In this document: positions 22,203-59,386 of the stretch, one piece after another
How the letters are laid out: every line of letters begins with the position of its first letter
How positions within the stretch are numbered: position 1 is the first letter of the stretch
Assembly (NCBI GenBank): GCA_018992685.1
Contig: JACVGT010000007.1
Location: 1-64,000 of the forward strand
Length of the DNA: 64,000 nt
Reading direction: 5' to 3'
From: Theionarchaea archaeon
GTDB lineage: Archaea; Methanobacteriota_B; Thermococci; Methanofastidiosales; SZ-28-30
The notes under the pieces: model-generated
The model's input: the letters and a program-made list of their open reading frames with translations, nothing else
What the model was told of the DNA's origin: nothing
The model's database searches: none
Program-made: the position numbers and the translations under genes

Positions 22203-22205
22203 CCA

Positions 22206-34290: not shown

Positions 34291-34306
34291 TCACGTGCTC
34301 TGCAGA

Positions 34307-35467: not shown

Positions 35468-36516
35468 AAACCATTGTCTTGGGTAAGACTGGACTGGAAG
35501 TGTCCAGAGTCGGGATAGGTGGCATTCCTCTGAACCGTCCCTCCGAAGAGAAGGCAATCAAGGTGGTGCAGCGTGCTCTGGACCTGGGAGTCAATTTCAT
35601 CGACACTGCCAATGGATATTCAGAGAGTGAGAATCGCATCGGAAAGGCAATATCAGGACGCCGAGAAGAAGTAATCATAGCAACCAAGACAGGAAGACGG
35701 GATAAGGACGCAGCACTACAGGAACTGGAAGTCAGCCTAGAGAGGCTTCGCACTGATTATATTGATATCTGGCAGTTTCACGGTATCAACACTGCTGCGA
35801 TTCTGGAAAAAGTGTTAGAACCGGGTGGAGCAATGGAAGGAGCACAGGTTGCGTTGAGGAAAGGTAAAGTCAGGCATATTGGATTCAGCAGCCACAATCT
35901 GGAGATCGCTATGAAAGCGGTAAGTTCTGGTCAGTTTGAGACGGTTCAATTCCCCCTCAACTTCGTCTCCGATGAAGCTGCACCAAGTTTGGTCCCGCTG
36001 GCGAGGCAGGAAGACATGGGATTCATTGCAATGAAGCCATTTGCTGGAGGAAGGATACGAGATGCTGATCTTGCCATCAAATATCTGCTCCAATTTGACA
36101 CTGTTGTTCCAGATCCGGGTGTTCAGAAAGTCGAGGAAATTGAAGAAATTGTTGGAATTGTGGACAGTGAGTCATGGGAAGTGTCATCTCAGGACTTAGA
36201 AAGAATAGAAAGCATTCGTGAGAAAGTAGGGAAAAGATTCTGCCGGCAGTGCACCTACTGTATGCCCTGTCCTCAGGAGGTCTTCATATGTGGTGTCCTG
36301 TACTTGCCGATTTTGTGGGAGCTGTGGCCGTCTGATTGGTTTTTTAACTGGGACTACGTTAACCATTCGGTGAAAAGTGCGAAGAACTGCATAAGATGTG
36401 GCGAATGCGAAGAAAAATGCCCGTACTTATTGCCTATCAGAGAAATGATCGAGGAGAGTGTCAATTTCTTCGAACAGAAGGCAAGAGAGTATAATAGGAA
36501 GGAGATTAAGAACTAG
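35464..36516 (+). CDS. aldo/keto reductase with ferredoxin-like Cys-rich C-terminus (paralog 2)
   Basis: Overlaps the previous stop by 4 nt (ATGA). AKR core plus C-terminal CRQCTYCMPCP...CIRCGECEEKCP. Confidence 0.85.
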   Translation: MKTIVLGKTGLEVSRVGIGGIPLNRPSEEKAIKVVQRALDLGVNFIDTANGYSESENRIGKAISGRREEVIIATKTGRRDKDAALQELEVSLERLRTDYIDIWQFHGINTAAILEKVLEPGGAMEGAQVALRKGKVRHIGFSSHNLEIAMKAVSSGQFETVQFPLNFVSDEAAPSLVPLARQEDMGFIAMKPFAGGRIRDADLAIKYLLQFDTVVPDPGVQKVEEIEEIVGIVDSESWEVSSQDLERIESIREKVGKRFCRQCTYCMPCPQEVFICGVLYLPILWELWPSDWFFNWDYVNHSVKSAKNCIRCGECEEKCPYLLPIREMIEESVNFFEQKAREYNRKEIKN

Positions 36517-36535
36517 CACATAAGGAGGTTTGTAA

Positions 36536-37081
36536 ATGAACATGATTGAGAGAAAAGTCAGGTACTTCCCGAATTATGGAGCACAGAATACAGATCAAGT
36601 CATTGAAATTGTAAAGAATCGAGCAACAGAGGGTGATGTGAGGACAGTCGTGGTTGCCAGCACTTCTGGAGAAACGGGTGTCAAATTTTTAAGAGAACTC
36701 GGAGACATTGCAGCTGTTGTCGTCGTCTCACACGAGAAAATGAATCCCACCCACAAACAGCGCATTACTGAACTGGGTGGTATCGCACTGGACACGACTC
36801 ATCTACCTCTGCACACGCCAGGAATGGATCCTATCAGAGAGGCGTTTCGAACTCTTGGCCAAGGATTTAAAGTCGCAGTCGAAGTTATTCTTATTGCTTC
36901 CGACAAAGGAGAAGTTGCCGTGTACGAAGACGTTATTGGGGTAGGCGGAACTGGCCGAGGGGAAGACACTGCAATACTTGCCAGAGCAACCCCCACCCAA
37001 GATGCATTTGGCAGTGATGAGACGAAGAAACTGGAAATCAGGGAAATCCTTGCCATGCCACTGAAGAAGAAATGGTGGTAG
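36536..37081 (+). CDS. hypothetical protein
   Basis: 181 aa. Strong SD AAGGAGGT 8 bp upstream. Located between AKR paralogs 2 and 3. Confidence 0.5.
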   Translation: MNMIERKVRYFPNYGAQNTDQVIEIVKNRATEGDVRTVVVASTSGETGVKFLRELGDIAAVVVVSHEKMNPTHKQRITELGGIALDTTHLPLHTPGMDPIREAFRTLGQGFKVAVEVILIASDKGEVAVYEDVIGVGGTGRGEDTAILARATPTQDAFGSDETKKLEIREILAMPLKKKWW

Positions 37082-37095
37082 GAGAGGGTGCTGCA

Positions 37096-38310
37096 ATGCA
37101 ATACCGGGCATTTGGCAGGCTAGATTGGAGGGTATCTGCTCTTGGATTCGGGTGCATGAGACTCCCCTATCAGGAAGGAGACTATCGACGTATACGTGAA
37201 CCTGAAGCAACCCAGATGATTCACTATGCCATTGATCACGGAGTTAACTACGTGGATACTGCCTATAATTACCATGATGGGAACAGTGAGCGATTCCTCG
37301 GTCGGGCATTGAGAGGGGGGTATCGAGAGAAGGTCAAGCTTGCCACCAAGATGTTTCCTTTGTCCATTAAAGAATATGACGATTTTGACAGATTGCTCAG
37401 CGAACAATTGGAGAGACTGCAGACTGGTTACGTGGACTTCTACCTCCTACACGGGATGAATCACAGATGGTGGCCAAGGCTTCGTGATCTGGGAGTGCTG
37501 GACTGGGCCGAAGGAGCAGCTGATGATGGACGTATTAGGCATCTTGGGTTCTCCTTCCATGACGAATTTCCAACCTTCAAGGAGATAGTCGACGCCTATA
37601 GCAAATGGACCTTATGCCAGATACAGTACAACTACATGGACACAGAGCATCAAGCAGGCACCAAGGGTCTCAGGTATGCTGCATCCAAGGGGCTGGCAGT
37701 TGTCATCATGGAACCTCTGCTGGGGGGTTGGCTTGCACATGCTCCCCAAGAAACTGAAAAATTACTGGATACAGCACTTAAGACCCGTACTCCAGCCGAA
37801 TGGGGATTGCAGTGGCTATGGAATCACCCCGAAGTGTCAGTGGTGCTCAGCGGAATGAGCACGATGAACCAGGTTGAGGAAAATGTGGTCAGCGCGGACA
37901 GATCTAACACCAACCACTTGTCTGAAAGAGAGCTCGCGCTTGTGGATCAACTGCGGACAGCATTCCAGAAACTCAGTCCCATCCCATGTACAGGATGTGG
38001 CTATTGTAAGCCGTGCCCCAACAACGTTGACATCCCCTATAACTTCAAGCTATTCAATGATGGCGTGATGTATGAAAGAGAGAGTTTCTGGAGGGCCCGT
38101 CGGTGGTATCGCTTCATGAAAGAGGGGCTCAAGGGAGATTATCATTGCGAAAGAGGACAGGCTGGCACATGTGTTCAGTGCCAGGAATGTGAAGCCAAAT
38201 GTCCGCAGAGCATTCCCATCAGTCGGTTGATGCCAGTTGTCCACCAGGTGCTGGGTGAGGACATGCCGTACAGCAGCGTGAATCTGGAGAATCTCATGTT
38301 GCAGAAATAA
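37096..38310 (+). CDS. aldo/keto reductase with ferredoxin-like Cys-rich C-terminus (paralog 3)
   Basis: ATG 37096 with GGAGAGGGTG upstream. GFGCMRLP. C-terminal CTGCGYCKPCP...CVQCQECEAKCP. T8 tract after the stop. Confidence 0.85.
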   Translation: MQYRAFGRLDWRVSALGFGCMRLPYQEGDYRRIREPEATQMIHYAIDHGVNYVDTAYNYHDGNSERFLGRALRGGYREKVKLATKMFPLSIKEYDDFDRLLSEQLERLQTGYVDFYLLHGMNHRWWPRLRDLGVLDWAEGAADDGRIRHLGFSFHDEFPTFKEIVDAYSKWTLCQIQYNYMDTEHQAGTKGLRYAASKGLAVVIMEPLLGGWLAHAPQETEKLLDTALKTRTPAEWGLQWLWNHPEVSVVLSGMSTMNQVEENVVSADRSNTNHLSERELALVDQLRTAFQKLSPIPCTGCGYCKPCPNNVDIPYNFKLFNDGVMYERESFWRARRWYRFMKEGLKGDYHCERGQAGTCVQCQECEAKCPQSIPISRLMPVVHQVLGEDMPYSSVNLENLMLQK

Positions 38311-42485: not shown

Positions 42486-45059
42486 ATGGAGATTCAGACG
42501 CAGGAACTCCTAAAGACACTTTCAAACAAGACCAACCTCGAGATCATAAACTTGTTGAGAAACGAACCATCCTATCCCCGGAAAATATCTGAGATACTGG
42601 GAATGCAGGAAGGCTATATCTCGAGAATTCTCTCAAATCTCGAAAAAATGGGTATTTTGCGCAGTCAGTGGGCATATCGAGAACGTAATGTCAAGCTGTA
42701 CTATGTTGACACAAAGGAGATCAGCATCGCCTTTGAACCTGAAGGCTTGAAGCTTCACGTGAAGACCAAAGGTGAGAAAGAGGTATCTGTGTCTTATGAT
42801 GCGTTCAAGTTTGAAATACCTGAACCGCATGGCTTCATCAATAGAAGAAAGGAGCTGCAGTTGATTGATACTCAACCCATGGTCGTCATTGAAGGATTGG
42901 CGGGTATTGGAAAGACCTTCCTGGCTGCAGAGTATGCTCAGAACGTACAGCCAAGGGGGAAGAAGATCTTCTGGCATTCATTCACCGATATTGACTCCTT
43001 TCACTATGTTATCAACAAATTATCTGTATTCCTGAATAATGTGGGCCTTTCCAATCTTCTGGAGTATATAAAACAGGAGGGTAGGGACAGCAGGGTACTG
43101 CTTTCCCTCTTCCAGCGGGGAATGACAGAGGACATGGTATTCTGTTTTGATGGGTTTCAGAAAGTGCAGGATTCTGAACTTGTCACCATGTTCAAACTGC
43201 TCAAAGACCCAGTTGCAAAAATTATTGTTACGTCCCGGGAACGTCCTTCCTTTGTTACAATATCCCGGAGTGATATTACAGAAATCAGGTTATCAGCTTT
43301 CACTGAAAAAGAAGCCAGAGAGCTCCTTCATTCCAGAGGTGTCATTCTGGGAGACAAAATGATGAAAAAGGCCCACAGAAAACTGGGAGGTCATCCTCTG
43401 ATTCTGGACATGTTCTGTGAAGCAGCAAAAGAGAAGCAGCCAAACCTCGTTTTGGAAAACCTTCCTGGCCACCAGGTGGAAGATTATCTGTGGAGCGAAA
43501 TCTTTCAGACCCTGTCAGAGGATGAACGGAAACTTGTGGAGTGCTTGTCCATGTTCAGAATACCTGCATCGGTCGATATCCTTAAGAAGGTGTACCAGGC
43601 TCCTGGGTTCTGGACCTGCCTGAAGGGACTGGAAAAACGCATGTTTATCAGGAGACAGAACGGCGGATACGTGCTCCCCTCTTCGATTGTGGAATTCACC
43701 TATCAGAGAGTCCCCGACAAGGAGGAACTGCATTCAGAAATCGCTGCCTTCTACAAATGCCAGGGCACTTCAGAGGGGCTCCTGGAATCTATGTATCATT
43801 TCCTGCAGGGTGAAAACCAGGATGAGGCTGCTCGTCTGGTAGCACAACCTCAAGATGTCGATTTGATAGAAAGGGGGTACCTGTCACCCTATCTGGACAT
43901 TCTGAATGGGTTCAGGAAATCCAAGATATCCCCGGAGCTGTGGTGCTGTATCATGTGTGCCAAAGGTAGAATTCTGTCGTTGTATGGAGATTCCAAGAGT
44001 GCACTCCGGGCATTTGAGGAGATGCAGAAAACTGCTCAGACCATCCAGTCTGACAAGTACGACGCCCGGGCTCTACATTGGATAGGAAACATCCATGCGT
44101 CAAAAGGAGACTGGAAGACAGCGCACATGTGTCTTGACACCAGCCTGTCCATACTGGAAAGACTCCAGGAGCATGAGGAAATGGTGGGTATCCATGCAGA
44201 CATTGGATTGCTCTTGATGAAAGAGGGAGTATTTGAGAAAGCACTTTCTCATTTTCGGGCAGGAAAGGACATTGCCGAAAAGAGTGGGTTCATGTACGGC
44301 CTTTCACAGATGCTGCGAGGCATAGCAAATGTGTACTACTACCAGGATCAGTTCGACACAGCTCTGGAATTTCACACGAAGAGTTTGACCCTGGCTGAAA
44401 AGGTGAGGGATGTGAGGGGCATTGCAGCAAACTACAACACGCTGGGATTGATTCACTTCTATAAGGGTGATCTTGAAAAGGCCATATCCTGCTTTAAGAG
44501 GACGCTTAATATATCAGAGAGGATTTCAGATATCAGAGATCAGATCATCTCGTGCGGAAACCTGGGGATGGTGTACGCAGAGGGAGGAGAGAGCGGCCTG
44601 GCACAGAACTATTATCAGAGAGCGTTGCATCTGGCAGAATCGCTGGAGGATCTATACTCCATTACCTATTTGAAAATGAAAATGGCAAGTCTTCTCCTGG
44701 AGAAAAAAGAATTGGAGAAAGCTCGCGCTCTCTGCGAGGTGTGCGAGAACATGTTTTCCTTGTTGGGCAAGAGCCTTCATTACGGGGAGTTCTGCAGGAT
44801 TTTTGCCATGGTATTGCAGCAGAGAGGGGAATGGGAAAAAGCGCAGGAACTCTACCTCAAAAGTATTGATGAGACCAGTGGATCACCTCTTGAACTGGGA
44901 AAGACCTATTTAGAGTTTGGACTTGGGATGAAGAGATATGGATCACTGGAAGAAGCTGAAGCGTGTTACGAGATGGCGCTTCAACTGTTTCAGCAAGTAT
45001 CAGCAGAAAGAGAAAGAGAAAAAGCACAGGAGAAGTGGGGAGCTGACAATCGGGGTTAA
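42486..45059 (+). CDS. STAND-type signal-transduction ATPase: N-terminal winged-helix HTH, NB-ARC/AAA-like NTPase (Walker A GLAGIGKT), C-terminal TPR array
   Basis: 857 aa. ArsR-like wHTH in the first ~90 aa. P-loop VVIEGLAGIGKTFLAAEYA. At least 8 TPR-like repeats at the C-terminus. TATA aacttatatagg about 30 bp upstream. Confidence 0.8.
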   Translation: MEIQTQELLKTLSNKTNLEIINLLRNEPSYPRKISEILGMQEGYISRILSNLEKMGILRSQWAYRERNVKLYYVDTKEISIAFEPEGLKLHVKTKGEKEVSVSYDAFKFEIPEPHGFINRRKELQLIDTQPMVVIEGLAGIGKTFLAAEYAQNVQPRGKKIFWHSFTDIDSFHYVINKLSVFLNNVGLSNLLEYIKQEGRDSRVLLSLFQRGMTEDMVFCFDGFQKVQDSELVTMFKLLKDPVAKIIVTSRERPSFVTISRSDITEIRLSAFTEKEARELLHSRGVILGDKMMKKAHRKLGGHPLILDMFCEAAKEKQPNLVLENLPGHQVEDYLWSEIFQTLSEDERKLVECLSMFRIPASVDILKKVYQAPGFWTCLKGLEKRMFIRRQNGGYVLPSSIVEFTYQRVPDKEELHSEIAAFYKCQGTSEGLLESMYHFLQGENQDEAARLVAQPQDVDLIERGYLSPYLDILNGFRKSKISPELWCCIMCAKGRILSLYGDSKSALRAFEEMQKTAQTIQSDKYDARALHWIGNIHASKGDWKTAHMCLDTSLSILERLQEHEEMVGIHADIGLLLMKEGVFEKALSHFRAGKDIAEKSGFMYGLSQMLRGIANVYYYQDQFDTALEFHTKSLTLAEKVRDVRGIAANYNTLGLIHFYKGDLEKAISCFKRTLNISERISDIRDQIISCGNLGMVYAEGGESGLAQNYYQRALHLAESLEDLYSITYLKMKMASLLLEKKELEKARALCEVCENMFSLLGKSLHYGEFCRIFAMVLQQRGEWEKAQELYLKSIDETSGSPLELGKTYLEFGLGMKRYGSLEEAEACYEMALQLFQQVSAEREREKAQEKWGADNRG

Positions 45060-48904: not shown

Positions 48905-49825
48905 CTATTTCTTTCCCTTCTCGTAGTGTTTCCCAAGAGCTGCCGGTGGTACAGCTCTCTTCACTGCTCCAGCCAAGACCAGAATAGTCAGAACATAGGG
49001 AATCATCTGAATGAACTGATTGGCAGCCACTGTCCCCTGCAATTTCATTTGCAGAGCATCAGTAAAACTGAAGAGAAGACTTGCTCCAAAGGCTCCTGCA
49101 GGGTTCCATTTGCCAAAGATGTTCGCCGCCAGAGCGATGAATCCTCTCCCTGCAGACATGTTTTGGCTGAACAGGTTCAACCATCCCAGGGACAGGTAGG
49201 CACCCCCCAACCCCGATAGCATGCCGCTGGCTGTTACAGATAAATACTGAATCCGGTGCACGTTGATTCCCACGGTATCTGCAGCCTCTGGGTGCTCACC
49301 TACTGCCCTAATTCTCAATCCCAGAGGAGTCCTAAACATGATGACCCAGGCAGCAACAACAATCACAATCATGATGTATACCAGAGGGTTTTGCTGGTCA
49401 AAGATATCCTTGAGGTAGGGAATGTCTCTGATCAGTGGGATGGACAAGGGCTTCAATCCGGAAACAGGGTCTGACGCTCCCCTATTTCCCCAGATGATCT
49501 GGAGCAACAGCGTGGTAAGCCCAAGAGAAAGAATATTCACTCCCACTCCACTGACGACCTGATTTGCTTTGAACTGGATACATAGTACCGCATGCAGCAA
49601 TCCAAAGGCCCCGCCTGCCAGGACTGCGCACAGCACACCGATCCAGGGATTTCCCAGAAAATGTGTGCCCACTACACCAGCAAAAGCACCCATCAGGATC
49701 ATGCCTTCCAGTCCGATATTAATGATACCACTGCGTTCTGAGTACGCGCCCCCGATGGAGGCCAGGGCAATAGGGGGAGATATCCTTAAGGTTGCACCCA
49801 GCAGTATGGCAATACTAGAAAGCAT
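48905..49825 (-). CDS. ABC transporter permease (BMP-family nucleoside uptake system, permease 2)
   Basis: Polytopic membrane protein. Start MLSSIAILLG at 49825 preceded by AGGAGGG. Confidence 0.8.
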   Translation of the reverse strand: MLSSIAILLGATLRISPPIALASIGGAYSERSGIINIGLEGMILMGAFAGVVGTHFLGNPWIGVLCAVLAGGAFGLLHAVLCIQFKANQVVSGVGVNILSLGLTTLLLQIIWGNRGASDPVSGLKPLSIPLIRDIPYLKDIFDQQNPLVYIMIVIVVAAWVIMFRTPLGLRIRAVGEHPEAADTVGINVHRIQYLSVTASGMLSGLGGAYLSLGWLNLFSQNMSAGRGFIALAANIFGKWNPAGAFGASLLFSFTDALQMKLQGTVAANQFIQMIPYVLTILVLAGAVKRAVPPAALGKHYEKGKK

Positions 49826-50894
49826 TGGCAATCCCTCCTTTCCTGATTTTCTTGAAGATTCTGAACATTTCAGGAGCTGCCACAAACAGTATCACGATAC
49901 CCTGGATCACCACCACCAGATCTGTGGGGACATTGGTCATCTGTTTCATGACCATCCCTCCGTTCCGCAGAGCACCAAACAGCAAAGCACCCAGTACTAC
50001 TCCCACAGGATGGTTTCTCCCCAGAACAGCAACAGCGATCCCGTCAAATCCGTACCCCGGGGAGAATCCGAAAATAAACCGTTTGTGCAGTCCCAGTACC
50101 TCGCCTGATCCACCCAGTCCTGCCAGCATTCCTGATATGAACATCGATATGATAATGCTTTTCTGGACACTTATCCCCCCGTATTCTGCAGCTGTGGGGT
50201 TGAGTCCTACTGCTCTGATTTCGTATCCCAGGGTAGTCCTATACAGAATATAGTACGTGACACCGACGCAAATGAGAGCCACGATTATGGCTGCTGATAA
50301 CTGGGTGGAGGGTACCAACCGTGGAAGCTGGGCTGATGGTGTAACAACATCAGTCTGAGCAATCCATCCTTCAGCCTTCAAAGGATAGTTGGCCAGATAG
50401 TTGCACAGGAGCACACCGATGTAATTCATCATAATGGTGGTAATCACTTCATGGGCACCCACCCTGGCTTTCAACACACTGGGCACCAGAGACCATGCAC
50501 CACCTGCAAGGGCCCCGGCTCCCAGGGCCAAAGGAATGTGAAAGAACCAGGGAAGCCAGGCAAAGTTGATCCCTACCACGGCAGCAGTAATGGCCCCAAC
50601 GTACAGTTGTCCCTCACCACCAATGTTGAATAACCCACATCGAAAGGCGAAGGCCACGGTCAGCCCTGTAAAGATGAGGGGTGTTGCCCTTGTGAGGGTC
50701 TGGGCAAAATCATACGTACTGCCGAATGCACCTTCGTACAGTGCCTTGTATGCCTCAAGAGGCGATGAGCCTGCAAGATATACAATCACTGCTCCCACCA
50801 AAAGGGCAGCAATAACAGCAATGATTGAGATAAAAATGTCCATCAGACTTTCTTTTTGAATAACCTGAGTTATTTTTATTAATCGTGGATTCAT
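49815..50894 (-). CDS. ABC transporter permease (BMP-family system, permease 1)
   Basis: 359-aa polytopic membrane protein. Start overlaps the ATPase stop by ATGA. Confidence 0.8.
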   Translation of the reverse strand: MNPRLIKITQVIQKESLMDIFISIIAVIAALLVGAVIVYLAGSSPLEAYKALYEGAFGSTYDFAQTLTRATPLIFTGLTVAFAFRCGLFNIGGEGQLYVGAITAAVVGINFAWLPWFFHIPLALGAGALAGGAWSLVPSVLKARVGAHEVITTIMMNYIGVLLCNYLANYPLKAEGWIAQTDVVTPSAQLPRLVPSTQLSAAIIVALICVGVTYYILYRTTLGYEIRAVGLNPTAAEYGGISVQKSIIISMFISGMLAGLGGSGEVLGLHKRFIFGFSPGYGFDGIAVAVLGRNHPVGVVLGALLFGALRNGGMVMKQMTNVPTDLVVVIQGIVILFVAAPEMFRIFKKIRKGGIANAF

Positions 50895-52420
50895 GCGTGT
50901 CCACCTGCCATCAATAATCCCAGTTCTTCTTCAGTGGTCTTCTGAGGATCTCGCTCTCCCACAATTTTCCCTTCGTAGATGACAGCGATCCTGTCAGAGA
51001 GACAGCGAACCTCATCTAAATCTGCAGAAATGAGAAGTATGGCCTTGTCCTTTTTCCTCATGCTGAGAAGGGTTTCATGGATGAACTCGATTGCGCCCAC
51101 GTCGAGACCTCTGGTAGGCTGTGAAGCGATAATAATCTCGGGCTCTCTTCCCAGTTCTCTGGCCACAATCACTTTCTGCTGGTTTCCACCTGACAGATAT
51201 TTGACCTCACTGTGTACCCCAGTTCCTCTAATGTCAAAGGTCTCCACCAGCTCGGACGCATATGAATCCACCTTATCATATTCCATTCTGAACCCGCGGG
51301 AAAAAGGAGCCTTAAAGTGGGATCCCAGTATCAGATTCTCGGATAGAGAGAAATCCTGGATGAGCCCTCTCTTCTGGCGATCTTCAGGGATGTGGGATAC
51401 TCCTGCGTTGATGAAGTCCCTCGGGGAGGAATGTGTTAGATCTTCCCCGTTTACAAGAATCTTCCCCCCGCTTGGGCTTCGCAGTCCCGTTGCCGTTTCT
51501 GCCAGTTCCAACTGGCCATTGCCTTCAACTCCCGCAATGCCAAGAATCTCACCTTTCCGCAGTTCCAATGTTATCCCCTGTAGGGCTTTCACTCCTCTCT
51601 CATTGTATGCTTCCAGGTTCTGCATCTGCATCACAGCCCCCTTTGGGGGGTGAGGAGGTTTTTCCACTACCAGGCAGACTTCTCTGCCCACCATCATTCT
51701 TGCCAGACTGGCAACATCTGTTTCCCCGGTGTGAACTGTTCCCACCAGTTGTCCTTTTCTCAGCACGGTGATGCGGTCACAGGTCGCCATGGGTTCCTTC
51801 AGTTTGTGGGTGATGAAAATGATAGTCTTTCCTTCTTCTTTTAACGATTTCATAACTTTGAACAGTTCTTCCCCTTCTTGTGGGGTCAAGACTGCTGTTG
51901 GTTCATCCAGAATGAGAATTTCAGCTCCCCGGTACAATGCTTTCAGAATCTCTACTCGCTGTTCAATGCCTACTGATATATCCTGGATCTTGGCTCTGGG
52001 GTCTACAGCAAGACCATACCGTTTTGAGATTTCTTCAACATCTCGTGCTGCCTTTTCTCTGTCCATGAGGAAATGAGTCTCCGGCTCAACACCCAGGACA
52101 ACGTTCTCAGCCACAGTGAAGGGAGGCACTAACATGAAGTGCTGGTGGATCATGCCAATACCCAGTGAGATCGCATCATTGGGATTTGTTATCGCAGTGG
52201 GCTTACCATTAACAGAAATTTCACCAGAATCAGGCTGGTATAGCCCATACAAGACGTTCATTAACGTGGTCTTTCCCGCACCGTTTTCTCCAAGAAGAGC
52301 ATGAATTTCTCCTTTTCTAACTGAAAAAGTAATATCGTCATTCGCCAGAACACCAGGGAAGCGCTTGGTTATGTGTTGCATCTCCACAGCATTGATGGGT
52401 TCTGCATTCATTGCCATCAT
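50891..52420 (-). CDS. ABC transporter ATP-binding protein with duplicated NBDs (sugar/nucleoside importer type)
   Basis: Two Walker A motifs (GENGAGKTT, GVEGNGQLE-type) and two LSGG signatures in about 510 aa. The ORF is open from GTG 52489; I chose ATG 52420. Confidence 0.85.
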   Translation of the reverse strand: MMAMNAEPINAVEMQHITKRFPGVLANDDITFSVRKGEIHALLGENGAGKTTLMNVLYGLYQPDSGEISVNGKPTAITNPNDAISLGIGMIHQHFMLVPPFTVAENVVLGVEPETHFLMDREKAARDVEEISKRYGLAVDPRAKIQDISVGIEQRVEILKALYRGAEILILDEPTAVLTPQEGEELFKVMKSLKEEGKTIIFITHKLKEPMATCDRITVLRKGQLVGTVHTGETDVASLARMMVGREVCLVVEKPPHPPKGAVMQMQNLEAYNERGVKALQGITLELRKGEILGIAGVEGNGQLELAETATGLRSPSGGKILVNGEDLTHSSPRDFINAGVSHIPEDRQKRGLIQDFSLSENLILGSHFKAPFSRGFRMEYDKVDSYASELVETFDIRGTGVHSEVKYLSGGNQQKVIVARELGREPEIIIASQPTRGLDVGAIEFIHETLLSMRKKDKAILLISADLDEVRCLSDRIAVIYEGKIVGERDPQKTTEEELGLLMAGGHA

Positions 52421-52534
52421 AAGCGTATTTCCCTTAAAAAGGCTACCGGTTGCATCTCTGGTGGCAGTATTTGATGGGCGAATTCTCACGATAACAGCTT
52501 AGGCAGTTCCTGCAAAATCAGACACCTCGCCCCT

Positions 52535-54379
52535 CTACTTCCTCATGGCTGTCTTTCTTTCATGATTTTCGGTTCTAGCCTCTGCCCCTGGCACTCTTTT
52601 GTCTGCTCTCAGCACTGAGATGATGTTCTCGAGAGACTGGTCATAGTACAATACGCCCCTTTCTCTGAGAATCTCCAGTATGTGCAAAAGCTCTTTCTCC
52701 TCCAGATGGGAAAAGTGTTGCTGTACCTGGGTGAATGACGTTATGCTGTCACAGAAAACTAGAAGGTCGGTCTCGTCTCTGCTAAAGGTACAGGAAAGAG
52801 ACCTTGATCCTTTTTCCTTAAAGGCAGAACAATCGGGATATTCTGTCCACTGATAATCGCTTCCAGCCCGGGAATAAAACTGCAGAAGTCTTTGAAAGGT
52901 GTTCCACAAAAGGTAGTGGCGAATTCTCCCTGCAAAGAATCCAAAGAATTCAAATCGTTCCCCCTCTGGCAGCTGCAAGACAGATGCGATTTCTGCCCAC
53001 ATGGGGTCTTTGTTGTAGGCATCCCTTTCATGTTCTGACATCTCATTGTAATATGGTGATCCCTTGTACAGTGTGAAGTACTTGGGGACAATGGAATACT
53101 TCCTCAGGAAGAATCTCAGAAATCTCAAGTTCACACAACTCTCCAGGACGTCTTCCTCAGTTTCAGGTGGCGTCTCTGCTACAAAATTCCCTTTGATCTC
53201 GAGGTTGTGTTGATCCCCGAGCTTGAGAGCCTGTATATTGTGGGCAAAAGAGTGTCTCTTTTCCATTTTCTTCAAGAGAGCATCAGTCATTGCTTCAAAT
53301 CCGATCTGCACGATTTCAAAACAAACCTTTTTCATGGCACGTGCTGTATCGGGGTTGATGAAGATTGGAGATGCTTCTGCAAAAAGGCGGTAGGGACGTC
53401 CTCTTCTTTCAGAACTTTCCACAATCAGGGCAAGCAGATGGTGGAATCGCTTCTTGTTACCGGGGAGTTCAGTATCTACAAATACGAATGTGTCACCACC
53501 GTGTCTCTTGGACTGGAATTCCAGTTCTTCGACAATGTTCTCAGGAGATCGAGCCCGATATGAGAATTCCTCATTCAGAACGCAAAATTTGCACCTGTTC
53601 CAGGGGCAGGAGCGCGACCCCCAAATGGGGATGATGACCCGCATGTCTTCATGAATGTGGGTTTTCAGTGCCGCAAAATAGTCTGTGTGGTCTGCAAATG
53701 GGTATGAATCCAGATCACAGCTTTCAGAATGCTTGTTTGTTGAGATGATGGCGGCACCATCCCGGTACACCAGATGAGGGATCTCGGTGAACGTTCCCTC
53801 TCGTATCCCCTGAATCAGATGAACCAAAGGGTATTCTCCCTCCCCCCATACAGCGTAGTCAGCCAGCTCAAATACCTTCATAAAGGCGTGAGCCTGTTCA
53901 TCATTGCGAATCCCTCCAATGACGATCTGTATTTCGGGGTTTAATTCTTTCAGTCGCCTCATTACATAAGAGCTCAGAAGCCACTGGTAGGTCTTTAGAG
54001 TAAATCCCGCCAGAGGTTCTTTGTAGAGGCCATTTTGGTATATGTAGTCATCGATTTTTGTTCGAAGTGTGTCTACAAAGGGAGGTATTTTCCCCTGATC
54101 AAAAAAGGGTGAAAAATACTGGTCGAGAACAGTCGTCTCGTGATGGGCACCTGAGAGATGTCTCACTGTATACAGAACGGGAGTATTAAGAGAGGACAAG
54201 GATGAAAACACAGGATAGTCCCCAATGTGATCCTGGAGTTCTGACAGCTCCTCAGCAAGTATTAGATTCCAGTAGATATTTGTCACAGAGATTCCCCTTG
54301 ATTGCAGGAACCCTTTCAGATATCCCAAAGCAGGATTGGGAATATCGTAACTGTAGGGGGGCAAACAGTTTAGTATCAT
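52535..54379 (-). CDS. B12-binding-domain radical SAM protein (class B), with atypical Cx4Cx2C cluster motif and ~150-aa C-terminal extension
   Basis: N-terminal Rossmann-like cobalamin-binding region (MILNCLPPYSYDIPNPALGYLKGFL). Radical SAM core with GSRSCPWNRCKFC. Start overlaps the upstream gene's stop by ATGA. Confidence 0.8.
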   Translation of the reverse strand: MILNCLPPYSYDIPNPALGYLKGFLQSRGISVTNIYWNLILAEELSELQDHIGDYPVFSSLSSLNTPVLYTVRHLSGAHHETTVLDQYFSPFFDQGKIPPFVDTLRTKIDDYIYQNGLYKEPLAGFTLKTYQWLLSSYVMRRLKELNPEIQIVIGGIRNDEQAHAFMKVFELADYAVWGEGEYPLVHLIQGIREGTFTEIPHLVYRDGAAIISTNKHSESCDLDSYPFADHTDYFAALKTHIHEDMRVIIPIWGSRSCPWNRCKFCVLNEEFSYRARSPENIVEELEFQSKRHGGDTFVFVDTELPGNKKRFHHLLALIVESSERRGRPYRLFAEASPIFINPDTARAMKKVCFEIVQIGFEAMTDALLKKMEKRHSFAHNIQALKLGDQHNLEIKGNFVAETPPETEEDVLESCVNLRFLRFFLRKYSIVPKYFTLYKGSPYYNEMSEHERDAYNKDPMWAEIASVLQLPEGERFEFFGFFAGRIRHYLLWNTFQRLLQFYSRAGSDYQWTEYPDCSAFKEKGSRSLSCTFSRDETDLLVFCDSITSFTQVQQHFSHLEEKELLHILEILRERGVLYYDQSLENIISVLRADKRVPGAEARTENHERKTAMRK

Positions 54380-55713
54380 TCATGGGCCTCCTTTTGCTTA
54401 CTGACATATGTTTTCACCTGTGGCAGCCCGAAAACCTGCCTGGTAAAATCCACGGTGAAACAGCCAGGAGCATCCAGTGTTCCTTTCTCTCTCAATGCAA
54501 TGGCAGGGCATCCCCCCATACACCGGGGAAGCATGACGCAGGCTTTACACTCAGTAATGGCCAGGGGGTTGCGGGCCATCCACGAGTAGTATGCAGGTGT
54601 TTTGTCCAGAGAACCACGAGAGTTCAGAGACCCCACAGCATGGCGGGTGTCTCCTACCAAAGACATGCACTTGTAGACACGGCCATCCACATTGATGATG
54701 TGAAACCAATCAGTAATACCAGCACACAAGGAAAAGTACACACCAATTCCAAAAGGGAGTGTGGTGAATCCTTTGTGAGCAGCCATTTCCATGACTTCAC
54801 TGAAGAGATCTGAAGTCCCCGGATATCCGTAAGAACTGTAGTAGTGGGTACAGTAATCCATGCGGGGAGTAACCGTCCCAAAGTAGGTATGGGCCTTCTC
54901 AAGGCCAGCTTCTCTCAACATTTCAAGAAAGGTAATGATATTGTCTTCCCATACGTTAATTCGCATAATCAGATTCATGCCATGATCTTCAACACATTGG
55001 GCACCCTCTACCACTGATTGCAGGCTGCTTGTCTCATCAGGGAAAACCCTCCTGGTGTGGTGGTAGTACTCAGGTGCATCAAAAGTGATATGAATATCTG
55101 CTACCGTGAACTGTGAGAGGTTGTCGAGTCCTTCAGGAGTAAGGAGAGTTCCATTGGTGAAGAGCTTGATGAGGAGAGAAATACCTGCTTCACTACATGC
55201 CTCTTGCAGGGTTTCAGTAAGAGAGGTTATGCACTCTTGATTCAAGAGTGGTTCTCCTCCGTAAAGACTCACAAAGAGCGTGTCAATGCCTCGTACGATC
55301 TGATTCTCAGCAAAGGTTACCCCTCTTTCTGCTACCTTCTTGCTCATATGCCCAGTGCAGGCAGAAGAATTCCTGTAGCAGTACCTACAGTTCAAGTTGC
55401 ATTCGTGCGTGACAATGAAGTTCAAGAATGCAACTCTCCCAAGAGGAGAGCCCCGATATCCTGTAGAGGGGAGGCACCACTTCTTCTGTTCCAAGGAAGC
55501 CTGTATCAAGTTCATCTCTTGACCGGTGTCCTCTATGAGAAGTCCCTGCTTTGATAGTGCTTCAATAATCTCAGGGGAGCCTTTTCCGGTCATGAGGACG
55601 TCATACATTTCAGAATCAATCACTGTGAGAGACCCGTTCAATGTATTGTATACAAGGAAATCCTCTCTAAATGGGATAATAAAGCAGTACTGTGATCTCT
55701 GCATAATAATCAA
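54376..55713 (-). CDS. radical SAM/SPASM-domain peptide-modifying enzyme (anSME-like), paralog 2
   Basis: ~95-aa N-terminal domain (FIIPFREDFLVYNTLNGSLTVID). CNLNCRYC (Cx3Cx2C). GGEPLL. C-terminal SPASM cysteines (CKACVMLPRCMGGCPA). ATGA overlap with the upstream gene. Confidence 0.85.
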   Translation of the reverse strand: MIIMQRSQYCFIIPFREDFLVYNTLNGSLTVIDSEMYDVLMTGKGSPEIIEALSKQGLLIEDTGQEMNLIQASLEQKKWCLPSTGYRGSPLGRVAFLNFIVTHECNLNCRYCYRNSSACTGHMSKKVAERGVTFAENQIVRGIDTLFVSLYGGEPLLNQECITSLTETLQEACSEAGISLLIKLFTNGTLLTPEGLDNLSQFTVADIHITFDAPEYYHHTRRVFPDETSSLQSVVEGAQCVEDHGMNLIMRINVWEDNIITFLEMLREAGLEKAHTYFGTVTPRMDYCTHYYSSYGYPGTSDLFSEVMEMAAHKGFTTLPFGIGVYFSLCAGITDWFHIINVDGRVYKCMSLVGDTRHAVGSLNSRGSLDKTPAYYSWMARNPLAITECKACVMLPRCMGGCPAIALREKGTLDAPGCFTVDFTRQVFGLPQVKTYVSKQKEAHE

Positions 55714-57053
55714 ACCCAGATGATCTTTCCCGCCTTGAACCGGTCAGGAAGCTTCTTTTCGAGGTACCAACGAAGCTGATGTTTCATTTCCTGGTACGGT
55801 GCATAGCATCCAACTGCGTGGAATGTCCCATGCTTTTCATATGCAACAGCAGCACATCCTCCCCCACATGAGGGTAGCATCTGGCACTCACGACATTCCG
55901 GTATCTGCAGGGGGTCTCTGCTCATCCAGTCGTAGTAGGTCCATGTATACTCTGGTATGGTACCGTCTTCTGAAATATGACCAATGGAATGGTTTTTCTG
56001 CCCCACGAAGGTGAGACACTTGTAAAGATCTGCATGAGGATCTATGATGAAGGTTCCTTCCCCTAGGAATCCACAAAAGACGTGAGCTGGCTTGTGGGTG
56101 CGAATGACAGCAGCCGCTTGACCTTTTTGATCCACAATATCTCTGAATTCAGCAAGTACCTCACGGGCTTCTTCCTCTTTAATGCACTTGGAGTAGTCCT
56201 TACATGCTTGAGTTGATGCCCCCACTGTACCACAGCGCACAGGGACATTCTTGAATCCCCTCTCCTGAAGCTCGTCCAGCAGCTCACCGATGAACGGTCT
56301 GCTTTCAGAATCCACGTTCACCCTAAAGCTCACTCCGACGTTTTGGTCCTGCAGAATGTGAGCTGATTGCATCATGTCATCAAAGGTACCTCCTCCACTC
56401 TTGTAGAATCGTTTGGTGTCGTGGATGCGTTTGGGACCATCCAGCGTGATCTGTACGTAGTCTGTGTGGTAGCGCTTCAACGTTTCAGCTATTTCAGGTG
56501 TGACCAGAGTACCATTTGTCACCATCATTGTCACGTATGAGATGCCGTGGTCTTCTGCCCAGGAAAAGCAGGAATCCATAATGTACTCAGAATCGTCGAA
56601 TCTGAGCAGTGGTTCACCACCATACAGCGACACAGAAAATTCCCGCGCGTGAGTGTCTTCCACGTATTTCTTTATGAATTTCACAGTTCTTTCCCTGGTG
56701 TCAGCATTCATTGTCCCGCGGAATAGCTCTCCTTTTCCTTCATAGCAGTATGGACATGCTAGATTGCAGGCATATGTCGTTATGAGCATGAAATGGGGAA
56801 AATCCACCGTGTATTTCCTGTATTCATATCCTACCTTGAATTTTCGAGATTCATCAAAATCATCTTCTATGATTACCTTGAGCGCTGCAAGAGATTTGAA
56901 CAAGTCAGAATCCAGAATGTCAATATTCCCGGCTTTCAAAGCTTCCTTCAGCTCTTCATCTATTCCTATTACTGCACCACTCATCATGTTGGCCAACAGG
57001 TATTCTCCAGGAGTCTCTGTGGGGATAACTATGTTGAAGTTTGACACTTTCAT
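55710..57053 (-). CDS. radical SAM/SPASM-domain peptide-modifying enzyme (anSME-like), paralog 1
   Basis: N-terminal RRE-like segment (NIVIPTETPGEYLLANMMSGAVIGID). CNLACPYC. GGEPLL. C-terminal CRECQMLPSCGGGCAA SPASM cysteines. ATG 57053 preceded by GAGGTGA; the ORF track begins at GTG 57062. Confidence 0.85.
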   Translation of the reverse strand: MKVSNFNIVIPTETPGEYLLANMMSGAVIGIDEELKEALKAGNIDILDSDLFKSLAALKVIIEDDFDESRKFKVGYEYRKYTVDFPHFMLITTYACNLACPYCYEGKGELFRGTMNADTRERTVKFIKKYVEDTHAREFSVSLYGGEPLLRFDDSEYIMDSCFSWAEDHGISYVTMMVTNGTLVTPEIAETLKRYHTDYVQITLDGPKRIHDTKRFYKSGGGTFDDMMQSAHILQDQNVGVSFRVNVDSESRPFIGELLDELQERGFKNVPVRCGTVGASTQACKDYSKCIKEEEAREVLAEFRDIVDQKGQAAAVIRTHKPAHVFCGFLGEGTFIIDPHADLYKCLTFVGQKNHSIGHISEDGTIPEYTWTYYDWMSRDPLQIPECRECQMLPSCGGGCAAVAYEKHGTFHAVGCYAPYQEMKHQLRWYLEKKLPDRFKAGKIIWV

Positions 57054-57062
57054 GAGGTTCAC

Positions 57063-57096
57063 CTCAGGAAAAAAGAAAGGCAGGTTGAACTGCCTT
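57063..57096 (-). terminator. hairpin (7-bp stem aaggcag/ctgcctt, 6-nt loop) followed by U6 tract, placed between the small Cys-rich ORF and the first rSAM gene
   Basis: Minus-strand reading: aaggcag ttcaac ctgcctt tcttttttcc directly after the TAA of the 35-codon ORF. Candidate partial terminator/attenuator. Confidence 0.45.
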
Positions 57097-57107
57097 TTGT
57101 TATAGAC

Positions 57108-57215
57108 TTACACATAGGGGTGGCAAATTCTGCAGCACCAGGAACCAGTTCCTTCCGTGATGCACAGAGGCTCCATGATTTGCTCTTCTGCTTCGATGAG
57201 GATAGTCATGTTCAT
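57108..57215 (-). CDS. 35-aa Cys-rich peptide, candidate precursor/substrate of the adjacent radical SAM enzymes (MNMTILIEAEEQIMEPLCITEGTGSWCCRICHPYV)
   Basis: Not in the supplied ORF track (shorter than 60 aa). ATG at 57215, TAA at 57108-57110. Acidic N-terminal half, C-terminal half with 4 Cys + Trp + His + Tyr. SD-like GGAAGTGG 6-13 nt upstream. Two TATA boxes upstream. Hairpin plus U-tract downstream. Same strand as, and 46 bp upstream of, the rSAM trio. Confidence 0.55.
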   Translation of the reverse strand: MNMTILIEAEEQIMEPLCITEGTGSWCCRICHPYV

Positions 57216-57224
57216 AGATTCCAC

Positions 57225-57268
57225 TTCCTATTGCTATATAAAGTTTCTCTTTATCTTTATATACTTTT
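57225..57268 (-). promoter_or_regulatory. archaeal TATA/BRE-like promoter elements for the small Cys-rich ORF
   Basis: Minus-strand gtatataaag (57255-57264) and ctttatatagc (57233-57243), about 45 and 23 bp upstream of ATG 57215. Confidence 0.4.
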
Positions 57269-57430
57269 CTATTCATATGAATTCTACTAATTTCGTCACT
57301 CTTATAGTAATCAAATAAGAGCAAATGCAGAAGCCAGTAGTCTTTAAAGACAATATCTCTTGATATTTTGGACTACTTTCGTCCATGTGAGGTTAAATGC
57401 AGAGATTCTCAACCGAAATGCCCCCTTTTC

Positions 57431-57449
57431 TCACTTTTGTAAAAAGTGA
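57431..57449. promoter_or_regulatory. perfect 8-bp-arm palindrome tcacttttGTAaaaagtga
   Basis: Arms 57431-57438 and 57442-57449 are exact reverse complements. Lies between the SBP terminator tract and the peptide promoter. Confidence 0.4.
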
Positions 57450-57530
57450 TAATGTTCGGTAGAAGAGCTCTCCCTCACAGATTTTGCAGAATCTGGTAAT
57501 TGCACCTGCGATCATGAGCTGGCCCGAGAA

Positions 57531-57560
57531 CAAAAAAGTAAAAAGTAAAAAGAAGAAGTA
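57531..57560 (-). terminator. oligo-T terminator tract after the SBP gene (ttcttcttttttactttttactttttt)
   Basis: Immediately 3' of the TAA at 57561-57563. Archaeal termination typically occurs at oligo-T runs. Confidence 0.4.
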
Positions 57561-58601
57561 TTAATCCCAGGTGTATTCACCGGCCTCGTCAATACCAGTG
57601 GGAACCTTGATTTCGCCAGATGCGATCTGCTCCCTGTAGTCTTCAATGATGTCTCGTATGTCATTAGGCACGTGCTCGCAAGCACCAACACCATTCTCTT
57701 TTGCGCCAAAGCTCTGTATGCCGCCTGCAAAAGTCCCGTCGATTACCTGCCGTATGGTCTCGTATACAGCTACATCCACACGCTTTATCATACTGCATAA
57801 GAAGGTCGTTACCGGTACTCCCTCAATGGTGTCGCACTGATCCGCATCTACGCCAATGACCAATCCACCACGTTCAAAAGCCGCCTGGATAGCTCCCAAG
57901 CCAGATCTTCCGGCAGCAGCGAACACGATGTCTGCCTCTCCGTCATACTGAGCAAGGGCAAGCTCCTTTCCTTTTGCAGGGTCTACCCAGTCGCCCACAT
58001 ACTTCCAGGTGACCTCAACATCTGGATTGACGTACTCGGCTCCAAACTTGTAGCCAGCCAGGAATTTTCGAATCAAGGGTATGTCCATTCCACCTACAAA
58101 TCCAATCATATCAGTTTCAGTTTTCAGACCAGCAGCTGCTCCTACCAGGAAACTACCTTCGTTTTCCCTGAATACAAGAGAAGCCACATTAGGTTTGTCT
58201 ACCACCATGTCCACGATCGCAAACTTCTGGTCGGGGTATTCATCTGCAACAACAGTGATGGCATCTGCCTGATCAAATCCTATACCTATTATCAGTGCAT
58301 ATTCCCCGGACTTGGCGTACTGCCTGTGGAATCCTTCGTACTCAGCGATGGCTGTAGGTTCAACATAGTCAAATTCAATGCCGAAATCATCTCTAGCCTT
58401 CTTGATACCTACGTAACAACTATCATTGAAGCTCTTGTCTCCTAGTCCACCAGTGGCAAAGACAACAGCAATTTTCAATTCGGGGGGTGGGGGTGTAGAA
58501 GTTGGTGTCGGAGTTGTGGTTTCTTCCTCCTGTCCGATGCATCCCAATGTAAGGGAGCACAAAACTACCAGGGTGAACAGCATCTTAATACTTTTGTTCA
58601 T
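57561..58601 (-). CDS. BMP-family (PnrA/Med/TmpC-like) ABC transporter substrate-binding lipoprotein, nucleoside-binding type
   Basis: Start MNKSIKMLFTLVVLCSLTLGCIG (signal peptide plus lipobox-like Cys) preceded by GGAGGG 5 bp upstream and TTTAAA box about 45 bp upstream. Periplasmic binding fold typical of BMP proteins. The ORF track extension to 58757 is non-coding. Confidence 0.8.
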   Translation of the reverse strand: MNKSIKMLFTLVVLCSLTLGCIGQEEETTTPTPTSTPPPPELKIAVVFATGGLGDKSFNDSCYVGIKKARDDFGIEFDYVEPTAIAEYEGFHRQYAKSGEYALIIGIGFDQADAITVVADEYPDQKFAIVDMVVDKPNVASLVFRENEGSFLVGAAAGLKTETDMIGFVGGMDIPLIRKFLAGYKFGAEYVNPDVEVTWKYVGDWVDPAKGKELALAQYDGEADIVFAAAGRSGLGAIQAAFERGGLVIGVDADQCDTIEGVPVTTFLCSMIKRVDVAVYETIRQVIDGTFAGGIQSFGAKENGVGACEHVPNDIRDIIEDYREQIASGEIKVPTGIDEAGEYTWD

Positions 58602-59386
58602 ATGATTCCCTCCACGCTCACAGAGCTTGAGTAGATTTAAATACGTTTCGATGAAGCACCGAGGGTTCACTTTGATGTTAGAAGGAGCGTATGCGAGTCG
58701 TTGCTTTTCCGAAATGATGGTCCATTTGCAGGCCAATGAAGTCCTCCTCAAGAGCAACTGGGATTCGCTTTTTCTTTCTTACCCTCTTCCAGCTTTTCCT
58801 TCTTGTTTACAGGGTTCCGGTACAGTCCTTGTGTGAGAATCCCCTTTCTCATTCTTGAAGAAGTTCCTTCATTCTTGAGACCCCTCGCCCAGCCTCAAGG
58901 AAGCGTTGCTCTTCAGAACCAAAAAAGCTTTAGGGTCAAGGACTGAAAGGGAGGTGAAAGATGTGAATCTGCCCGTTTCAGTAAAACCCTCAATTTCCCC
59001 GCTCTCTCGGTTCTGGGTTCAGAAGGAAGGAGTTTTCGTGACCAACGGCGCCCGTGATTTAAGGGACCCAGAAAGCTGTAGCTCCCACTGTTAAAGTTGA
59101 AATAATTAGAACTCTTTGCTGAAGTCCCATCGGCATTCAAAATGTTCTCGTTCTCACTACCTGTTCTGGTGGGTAGGACGCCCCGGCAGCCCTGTCCCAA
59201 AGCTTCTGCTCTCACGTACATTTTGATCTCCTGGTTCTTTCAACTTCCTTCCTCTGGAGACTGAGATGGAGGTTCAGTAGCGTGGATTCCTGCAGCCTGC
59301 ATCTCAGTCCATGTGTACAATCCTGTCTGAAAAACGGGATACACCTACGGAAGATTTATATAGGGTTTATATTAATTTTCTGTTGC

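Follow-up and report, generated by a model that had tools for sequence, protein, structure and literature searches.

The short open reading frame (ORF) at 57108..57215 on the minus strand of the 64,000-nucleotide stretch of Theionarchaea archaeon contig JACVGT010000007.1 (the whole stretch analysed, hereinafter the window) very probably is the separately promoted precursor gene of a peptide synthesized ribosomally and modified post-translationally (RiPP) of the radical S-adenosylmethionine (SAM)-modified type, with the adjoining maturases as the enzymes that act on it in this Theionarchaea-like archaeon. The reverse complement of 57108-57215 translates as MNMTILIEAEEQIMEPLCITEGTGSWCCRICHPYV* (35 amino acids followed by TAA), with the ATG at 57215-57213 and the stop codon at 57110-57108, and reproduces exactly the peptide proposed in a first-pass annotation of this DNA. 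As described there, residues 1-17 include four glutamates and not a single cysteine, and are followed by C18, C27, C28 and C31, along with W26, H32 and Y34. The ORF was missed, as had been pointed out, by the 60-amino-acid cut-off of the ORF list compiled for the window. The list reports a 74-amino-acid ORF with a TTG start at 57100-57324 (minus strand) that lies across the peptide gene in a different frame; this ORF was rejected as a gene, its frame being interrupted by stops in the homologues.

A single 35-codon ORF is not beyond chance, but its conservation evidently is. A search with the protein sequence of the adjacent enzyme (maturase 1) identifies a tight group of orthologues (P0001-P0019, 56-92% identity, several of them named Theionarchaea); all further matches are at most 38% identical. 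Orthologues of this radical-SAM/SPASM enzyme, with 57-92% identity in the loci examined, adjoin ten distinct homologous peptides, one of which has a TTG start. The same ORF is located next to orthologous maturases in L001 and L006 (MNMTILIEAEEQIMEPLCITEGTGSWCCKICHPYV), L002/L012 (MKLKVLIRANEQVFEPLCITEGTGSWCCKICSPYF), L003-5 (MKVIINPQDHVPIPICQWGHDLWCNKYCFEFLF, the TTG start), L092 (MNMKVLLGAEEKVAEPLCILEGRGAWCCIYWW), L093 (MEMKVLVGAKEEVVEPLCITEGRGAWCCIYWY), L094 (MNMKVLVGAEKKAVEPLCPAEGRGAWCCYV) and L096-99 (MDMKVLVGADKKEVEPLCPTEGRGAVCCIYWW). Further copies of the peptide family are the database proteins P0121-P0126; among these, P0121 (I5V and T23P compared to the window peptide) and P0125 were added by a peptide profile search. 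The exact peptide of the window is not on record in an exact-sequence look-up of the protein collection, so that in this sense the ORF is indeed unannotated; the orthologues P0121, P0122, P0124 and P0126, however, are already called "hypothetical protein" by JGI/NCBI. Relatives do carry the small ORF, contrary to the outcome that the first-pass annotation had named as refuting it: an intact homologue is found next to the maturase 1 orthologue in 9 of the 10 distinct orthologous loci.

Residues 1-28 are conserved throughout the family and consist of a leader of the form MxMKVLxGAEE... and the motif EPLCxxEGxGxWCC, with P16, C18, G22 and C27 invariant and E15, E21, G24, W26 and C28 nearly so (W26 is replaced by V in P0126). 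Thus, the conserved block extends through residue 28, beyond the leader/core split that had been placed at residues 17/18. Residues 29-35 of the window peptide form a variable tail, and past residue 28 the family members differ in both length and sequence. The window, L001, L006 and P0121 share the tail ICHPYV, and L002 has ICSPYF; C31 and the proline are both missing from the tails IYWW, IYWY, VYWW and YV, and the proline is also missing in L003. Of the cysteine positions, the conservation of which had been suggested as a check, C18 and C27 are conserved and C28 nearly so; C31, like H32, is not.

Over the 28 alignable codons, the proportion of synonymous differences (pS) is 0.5-0.9, that of non-synonymous differences (pN) is 0.09-0.29 and pN/pS is 0.15-0.5, with the synonymous sites near saturation. 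The comparison of the window with L001 over the 28 codons shows three synonymous and no non-synonymous changes, and in the 14-codon core EPLCITEGTGSWCC the window and L002 differ by 9 synonymous and 0 non-synonymous changes. The variable columns are distributed over codon positions 1, 2 and 3 as 15/8/22. Each of the five alternative frames carries stops in several homologues, and only the peptide frame is open throughout. Between the window and L006, a Theionarchaea contig with 92% relatedness, 5 of the 108 ORF nucleotides are changed, and divergence is much greater in the distal half of the spacer upstream. As judged from the aligned codons, selection on the ORF is purifying.

Inspection of the sequence reveals the expected expression signals upstream of the ORF, at the positions where they had been reported. 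The Shine-Dalgarno (SD)-like element GGAAGTGG is located at 57221..57228 (minus strand; -13..-6, 5 nucleotides before the ATG), and the homologues carry GGAGGTG, GGAGGT or GGAAGTGG at the equivalent position. Two TATA-box-like elements, which had been placed at -23 and -45, are TTTATATA at 57235-57242 (minus strand; -27..-20) and TATATAAA at 57256-57263 (minus strand; -48..-41). Every homologous locus contains a (C)TTATA(A/T)A box 20-50 nucleotides upstream of the start codon together with a GGAGGT-like SD element. Downstream, between the stop codon of the peptide and the SD element of the maturase 1 gene (GAGGTGA), the window contains a terminator- or attenuator-like stem-loop, AAAGGCAG-ttcaac-CTGCCTTT, followed by CTTTTTT (57069..57097, minus strand). 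A terminator scan independently detects this hairpin at 57097..57076, with CTTTTTT next to it. Of 9 distinct loci, 8 have a G+C-rich stem-loop with a T-tract in the interval from the peptide stop codon to the SD element of the maturase gene; the stem sequences differ among the loci, and RNAalifold yields a consensus hairpin of 9 bp in which 4 pairs show compensatory changes. The hairpin is missing in L092, where the peptide is intact. Separately promoted, terminator-flanked precursor genes that precede coupled enzyme genes are common in bacteriocin and RiPP operons, and the hairpin with its T-tract may act in attenuation. Given the conservation, the selection and these signals, the ORF is almost certainly a real gene. 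The broader suggestion of the first-pass annotation, a genuine small gene that encodes a leader and a cysteine-rich region and serves the flanking radical-SAM/SPASM enzymes, is supported in outline by the conserved adjacency, the purifying selection, the gene's own promoter and SD element, and the hairpin.

The peptide gene is coupled to the gene for maturase 1 (55710..57053, minus strand, 447 amino acids), which always adjoins it. Maturase 1 contains the radical-SAM motif CX3CX2C (C96/C100/C103) and seven cysteines of the SPASM domain (C327, C346, C387, C390, C396, C400 and C416), all of which are invariant in 18 orthologues. It is followed by maturase 2 (54376..55713, minus strand, 445 amino acids), whose TTG start overlaps the stop codon of maturase 1 as TTGA; this protein is confined to some of the family loci, is 27-31% identical to maturase 1, has the same seven-cysteine SPASM pattern and matches TIGR04085 (SPASM). 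The best NCBIfam match of maturases 1 and 2 is the RiPP maturase CefB (383 and 219 bits, respectively), followed by TIGR04463, Clo7bot, geopeptide and PapB. Among solved structures, maturase 1 is most similar to the thioether synthase CteB (5WGG), with E=1.5e-22 for the single sequence and 2.9e-31 for the orthologue profile, whereas the match to the anaerobic sulfatase-maturating enzyme (anSME) is weaker (5e-10 and 5e-19, respectively). A Foldseek search started with the AlphaFold2 model of maturase 1 likewise retrieves CteB first (450-470 aligned columns) and anSME second (about 390 columns). In this model, residues 6-81 show a beta-beta-beta-alpha-alpha-alpha arrangement, the topology of the RiPP recognition element (RRE), with a pLDDT of 43-66 in this region. 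A profile alignment to 5wgg equates C327, C346 and C400 of maturase 1 with the ligands C344, C362 and C413 of the first auxiliary cluster (AC1) of CteB, and C387, C390, C396 and C416 with the ligands C400, C403, C409 and C432 of the second one (AC2); the cluster-ligand numbering of CteB is that of PMC10177961. By these alignments, the maturases belong to a CteB-like group with the cluster-ligand pattern of CteB, that is, a three-cysteine AC1 and a four-cysteine AC2. The cysteine C290, which is invariant and specific to the family, could be a fourth ligand.

The third enzyme gene of the cassette (52535..54379, minus strand), which overlaps the maturase 2 gene as ATGA and is also confined to some family loci, encodes a radical-SAM protein of 614 amino acids with a putative B12-binding domain. 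Its best match is TIGR03975, RiPP maturation radical SAM C-methyltransferase (163 bits over residues 6-577 of 614, with a cut-off of 281.85). PF04055 is matched, and PF02310 reaches only 25.1 against 32.1. The only PDB sequence match of this protein is a weak one (9ccb, 1.8e-6). Residues 258-266, CPWNRCKFC, follow the pattern CX4CX2C rather than the canonical CX3CX2C, and CPWN[RK]C[KR]FC is retained in the B12 radical-SAM orthologues of 48-84% identity (L006, L093 and L096).

The constant unit in every architecture seen is the peptide with a maturase 1 orthologue; maturase 2, the B12 radical-SAM enzyme and YcaO come and go. The bare two-gene unit of peptide and maturase 1 is found in L003-5, maturase 2 (about 50% identity) in L002, L094 and L096, the B12 enzyme (48-84% identity) in L006, L093-96 and the P0121 contig, and YcaO in L094, L096 and a contig of 17.7 kb. 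Some contigs, e.g., the 17.7-kb one, contain tandem peptide/enzyme pairs. No clean correlation is apparent between the type of tail and the accessory enzymes: the RICHPYV tail occurs both with and without maturase 2. In L096-99, a second small ORF, MDMEHVCIDEEYW(H/R)LY(TP/PT)YRAFLVTVM (L096 927-1010, L097 7271-7354, L098 4547-4630 and L099 1832-1915), is located upstream of the first of two maturase 1 paralogues and is preceded by a CCTTATAAG box and a GGAGAG SD element, as in the canonical peptide genes. It was seen in two variants only, with non-synonymous changes between them. It could encode a second type of precursor (C-I-D-E...W echoes C-I-T-E...W) or be a decayed copy.

In the window, a Bmp-family substrate-binding gene (58757-57561) lies upstream of the cassette, and an ABC ATPase gene and two permease genes lie downstream of it (49815-58757 in all, minus strand), so that the cassette lies within a set of genes with the appearance of a single Bmp-family ABC importer operon. 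From Bmp through the peptide, maturase 1, maturase 2 and the B12 enzyme to the ABC ATPase, the order of the genes is shared with JACVGW010000007 of Theionarchaea archaeon SZ_28-30, at 82-92% protein identity. The importer arrangement of L006 (1670-9513) is the same as that in the window. Elsewhere in the family the genomic surroundings are unrelated, and the cassette therefore appears to move; the composition profile gives no clear signal that the cassette is foreign DNA (G+C content of 0.46-0.48 in the cassette and 0.48-0.50 in the flanks). Pfam searches detect large proteins with tetratricopeptide (TPR) repeats near the cassette in L093 (1-735) and L095 (4100-5971). About 7 kb beyond the last gene of the cassette, the window itself encodes an 857-amino-acid protein (42486-45059, plus strand) in which an N-terminal helix-turn-helix, a P-loop GLAGIGKT and TPR-like repeats can be discerned by eye; a regulatory link to the cassette is conceivable. 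Additional radical-SAM/SPASM genes, together with PqqD and YcaO, occur near or beside the cassette in the P0121 contig (JGI 3300042731), in L007/L009 of the L006 genome, and in L094 and L096, which suggests that this lineage is unusually rich in radical-SAM peptide chemistry. Elsewhere in the window (21030-23396 and 34277-38310, plus strand), two adjacent genes for the D-component of 2-hydroxyglutaryl-CoA dehydratase and two genes for aldo/keto reductase-ferredoxin fusions fit an anaerobic fermentative archaeon.

The five family peptides searched match no NCBIfam or Pfam family, even at E=10. An exhaustive hidden Markov model search of 1.84 billion representatives retrieves just two genuine cluster representatives, and five further matches are long repeat proteins. 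Two of these five were inspected, P0127 (499 amino acids) and P0131 (151 amino acids), and consist of a signal peptide and KR-spaced (A)DPLCLFHGQGCW repeats. They resemble the alpha-pheromone precursors of ascomycete fungi and were rejected as homologues, the similarity being attributed to chance or to convergent hairpin motifs. That they have the [DE]PLC-x3-G-x-G-x-W pattern in common with the peptides points to a similar cysteine-flanked glycine-turn hairpin, probably of convergent origin. Genome and metagenome scans with the maturase profile find mostly distant anSME-like and other SPASM enzymes (23-35% identity), with only L006 and L012 being orthologous. No related peptide is present among the small ORFs that adjoin the 33-38% identical paralogues (L007-L015), and no CefA is encoded within the fetched flank of the CefB locus (L100/L101). 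Rfam yields no match on the whole window and a tRNA scan of it detects none; literature searches returned nothing on this peptide family. The system is thus of a well-known kind, and its precursor peptides form a family that is not yet catalogued. According to a 2025 survey of archaeal RiPPs (PMC12144867), Archaea are widely predicted to carry radical-SAM-modified RiPP clusters, the functional characterisation of which is still limited.

Under the precursor interpretation, the peptide would be transcribed from its own TATA-box promoter, and the hairpin with the T-tract would let only part of the transcription proceed into the operon that follows, in which maturase 1, maturase 2 and the B12 enzyme are translationally coupled, so that the peptide would be made in excess over the enzymes. 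The N-terminal segment MxMKVLxGAEE... would dock as a beta-strand on the RRE-like N-terminal domain of maturase 1, and C18, C27 or C28 would ligate the open iron of the auxiliary cluster with three cysteines, in the manner of CteB, PapB and Tte1186; for PapB and Tte1186, evidence from selenium extended X-ray absorption fine structure has been reported for the binding of a substrate cysteine to AC1 (PMC10177961). A 5'-deoxyadenosyl radical would then abstract a hydrogen from a nearby residue in EPLCxxEGxGxWCC, with formation of a thioether ring between the cysteine sulfur and a carbon atom (of the sactionine or ranthionine type). Maturase 2 would add further cross-links, and the B12 enzyme would C-methylate an unactivated carbon of the peptide, a reaction that is possible given its family match. 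The CteB-like cluster ligands and the invariant cysteines of the peptide make cysteine-derived thioether cross-linking the most likely chemistry, with a probability that we put slightly above even. Leader docking would be part of this scheme, and the final product may serve as a signal, an antimicrobial or in another capacity.

Several observations weigh against this interpretation. All three cassette enzymes score under the curated NCBIfam cut-offs of every named family, and the AlphaFold2 model of maturase 1 is moderate (pLDDT 68, pTM 0.68), falling below 50 around the cluster-binding loops. No PqqD or RRE Pfam match is obtained for residues 1-91 of maturase 1, even at E<=10, so that the assignment of the N-terminal domain as an RRE is one of topology only. 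The chemistry of radical-SAM enzymes is not reliably predictable from sequence (PMC10288494), and the modification of the peptide is itself a prediction. In L095, an intact maturase 1 gene is accompanied by a degenerate, cysteine-less precursor remnant, MNISVLVGKKEGEPLYPLRGKSAWIKNSRVSIFEVNS (859-972), in which C18 is changed to Y, the CC pair, the stop codon and the hairpin are lost, the promoter is weak and the frame runs into the SD element of the maturase 1 gene. Within the family, the tryptophan at position 26 is not universal, the tail is highly variable, and the conserved part could be leader, core or both. Finally, neither a protease nor an exporter is conserved with the cassette; because of the lack of the former, the idea that cleavage of the double-glycine type might occur at the G-[AS] pair of residues 24-25, with just WCC and the tail left as the core, is speculation.

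The lack of these two functions, and a minimal unit that consists of just a peptide and one radical-SAM/SPASM enzyme (L003-5), are also what could be expected if the peptide were a RiPP-type substrate from which an intracellular cofactor or a redox- or metal-binding molecule was made, similarly to PQQ or mycofactocin, rather than a secreted product. Moreover, every tail ends in an aromatic/hydrophobic pair (YV, YF, LF, WW or WY), which is reminiscent of mycofactocin precursors with their C-terminal VY. This alternative is nevertheless improbable: the maturase reaches only 65.7 bits with the mycofactocin model against a cut-off of 265, no other mycofactocin or PQQ genes are present, the tails are too variable in length and sequence for one cofactor structure, and tandem peptide/enzyme duplications as in the 17.7-kb contig are more typical of diversifying natural products. 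The position of the short ORF directly before a conserved terminator-like hairpin and T-tract ahead of an operon, with the WCC codons near its end, would also suit a cis-regulatory leader peptide, the translation of whose rare Trp-Cys-Cys codons controls the terminator while the true substrate of the enzymes is encoded elsewhere. Attenuator peptides, however, keep only the regulatory codons, whereas here the amino acids are retained over all 28 N-terminal residues in spite of saturated synonymous change. The folding of the spacer between the peptide stop and the maturase start with RNAfold, confined to this spacer, gives no alternative antiterminator pairing that overlaps the end of the ORF, and L092 retains an intact peptide without the hairpin. 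CteB-like maturases with an N-terminal domain of the peptide-binding type need a peptide substrate, for which no other candidate is conserved nearby, and for archaea, attenuation coupled to ribosomes is, as far as is known, not an established mechanism. Taken together, these points render the regulatory explanation quite implausible.

The first-pass annotation had likened C-H-P-Y-V at the end of the peptide to the sulfatase maturation motif C-x-P-x-R without its arginine, and the flanking enzymes to anSME, which would imply oxidation of the cysteine to formylglycine. The C-x-P-Y-[VF] sequence is indeed kept in the closest subclade (window, L001, L006, P0121 and L002), and anSME is the second-best structural match of maturase 1. 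The arginine, however, is found in no family member, and the sulfatase-like sequence is confined to the ICHPYV/ICSPYF subclade, with C31 and the proline, or the motif as a whole, absent from the IYWW, IYWY, VYWW, YV and CFEFLF tails. The anSME model TIGR03942, with its cut-off of 349 bits, gives 89 and 51 bits for the two maturases, far less than the CefB model does, and the maturases lack the extra cysteine that fully ligates the first auxiliary cluster of anSME. The likeness to a sulfatase site is therefore not retained, and its probability appears to be very slight; the accompanying remark that no sulfatase is present agrees with the absence of one among the scanned ORFs of the window (six proteins of the cluster region and ten larger ORFs upstream of 44 kb). 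In a spacer of 500 nucleotides, an ORF of 35 codons can be expected to arise by chance, and the exact peptide is new to the protein collection, as would be the case for a chance ORF in a long AT-rich spacer. The comparative data on conservation, selection and expression signals refute this explanation, and it can be dismissed for practical purposes.

With the peptide thus regarded as a precursor, the cross-link might be of a type new for RiPPs, e.g., one that involves the vicinal Cys27-Cys28 pair and the adjacent tryptophan or the aromatic tail and is installed with the participation of up to four enzymes (two SPASM enzymes, the CX4CX2C B12 radical-SAM enzyme and YcaO). This seems rather unlikely; if true, the family would be, as far as found, the first radical-SAM RiPP class to be defined that is specific to Archaea, and it would come from an uncultured sediment lineage. 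Short of that, the analysis defines a concrete precursor family of about 10 sequences from uncultured Theionarchaea-like archaea, with a clear motif and a minimal two-gene unit that is amenable to heterologous expression, corrects a tempting sulfatase analogy, and illustrates how an ORF cut-off of 60 amino acids conceals the key gene of a cluster. No concept is changed, cassettes of a peptide and a SPASM enzyme being routine in genome mining.

Among the known systems, several share parts of this arrangement. The system of CefA and CefB (NF038107), a bioinformatically defined and, as far as is known, uncharacterised RiPP family, is the top curated family for both SPASM enzymes, which align with it end to end and fall short of its cut-off of 600 bits. 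P0119, a protein that carries the name CefB, shares only 34% identity with maturase 1, and the cysteine positions 18/27/28/31 of the window peptide are unlike the cysteine at every fifth position of CefA. PapB, which acts on PapA (freyrasin), is a homologous CteB-like maturase, with scores of 161 and 112 bits for the two SPASM enzymes under a cut-off of 340 for the PapB model (NF047865). PapB makes links between cysteine sulfur and the beta-carbon of aspartate in CX3D motifs (PMC10177961). Thioether formation of the QhpD type likewise joins cysteine to aspartate or glutamate. The family described here also has an acidic residue soon after the invariant cysteine (C18-x-x-E21, or C-x4-D in L003), which may be akin to the PapB/QhpD motif; the arrangement is, however, CX2E in a single copy, compared to six repeats of CX3D in PapA, and the score with the QhpD model is 96 bits against 453. 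The rSAM/SPASM fold with two auxiliary clusters is shared with anSME, which differs in having no N-terminal peptide-binding domain and a four-cysteine AC1. The mycofactocin maturase MftC (TIGR03962) is well below its threshold, as given above, and the neighbours mftB, mftD, mftE and mftF are missing. The presence of two paralogous SPASM enzymes has counterparts in the thuricin CD and ruminococcin C clusters, as described in PMC12093266 and PMC8188230, and a B12 radical-SAM tailoring methyltransferase is likewise found with the proteusin-type RiPPs (TIGR03975 family). The peptides of these multi-radical-SAM sactipeptides and proteusins bear no sequence relation to the present family, and the RumMC model gives 75 bits against 720.

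The closest parallel is provided by the SCIFF ranthipeptide systems CteA/CteB of Clostridium thermocellum (PDB 5WGG/5WHY) and Tte1186a/Tte1186, in which a short cysteine-containing peptide is likewise encoded beside one radical-SAM/SPASM maturase. The two-gene cassette is often bare in both cases, with no protease or exporter. CteB is the best solved match of maturase 1 by both sequence and fold and aligns with it from end to end, N-terminal domain included, at only about 20% identity, and the maturase reaches 99 bits with the ScfB/SCIFF model TIGR03974, the cut-off of which is 425. The family peptides are shorter (30-35 amino acids), contain 2-4 cysteines rather than six and show no sequence similarity to SCIFF peptides. 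Unlike the SCIFF systems, the one described here is archaeal and is often joined by a second SPASM enzyme, a B12 radical-SAM enzyme and YcaO.

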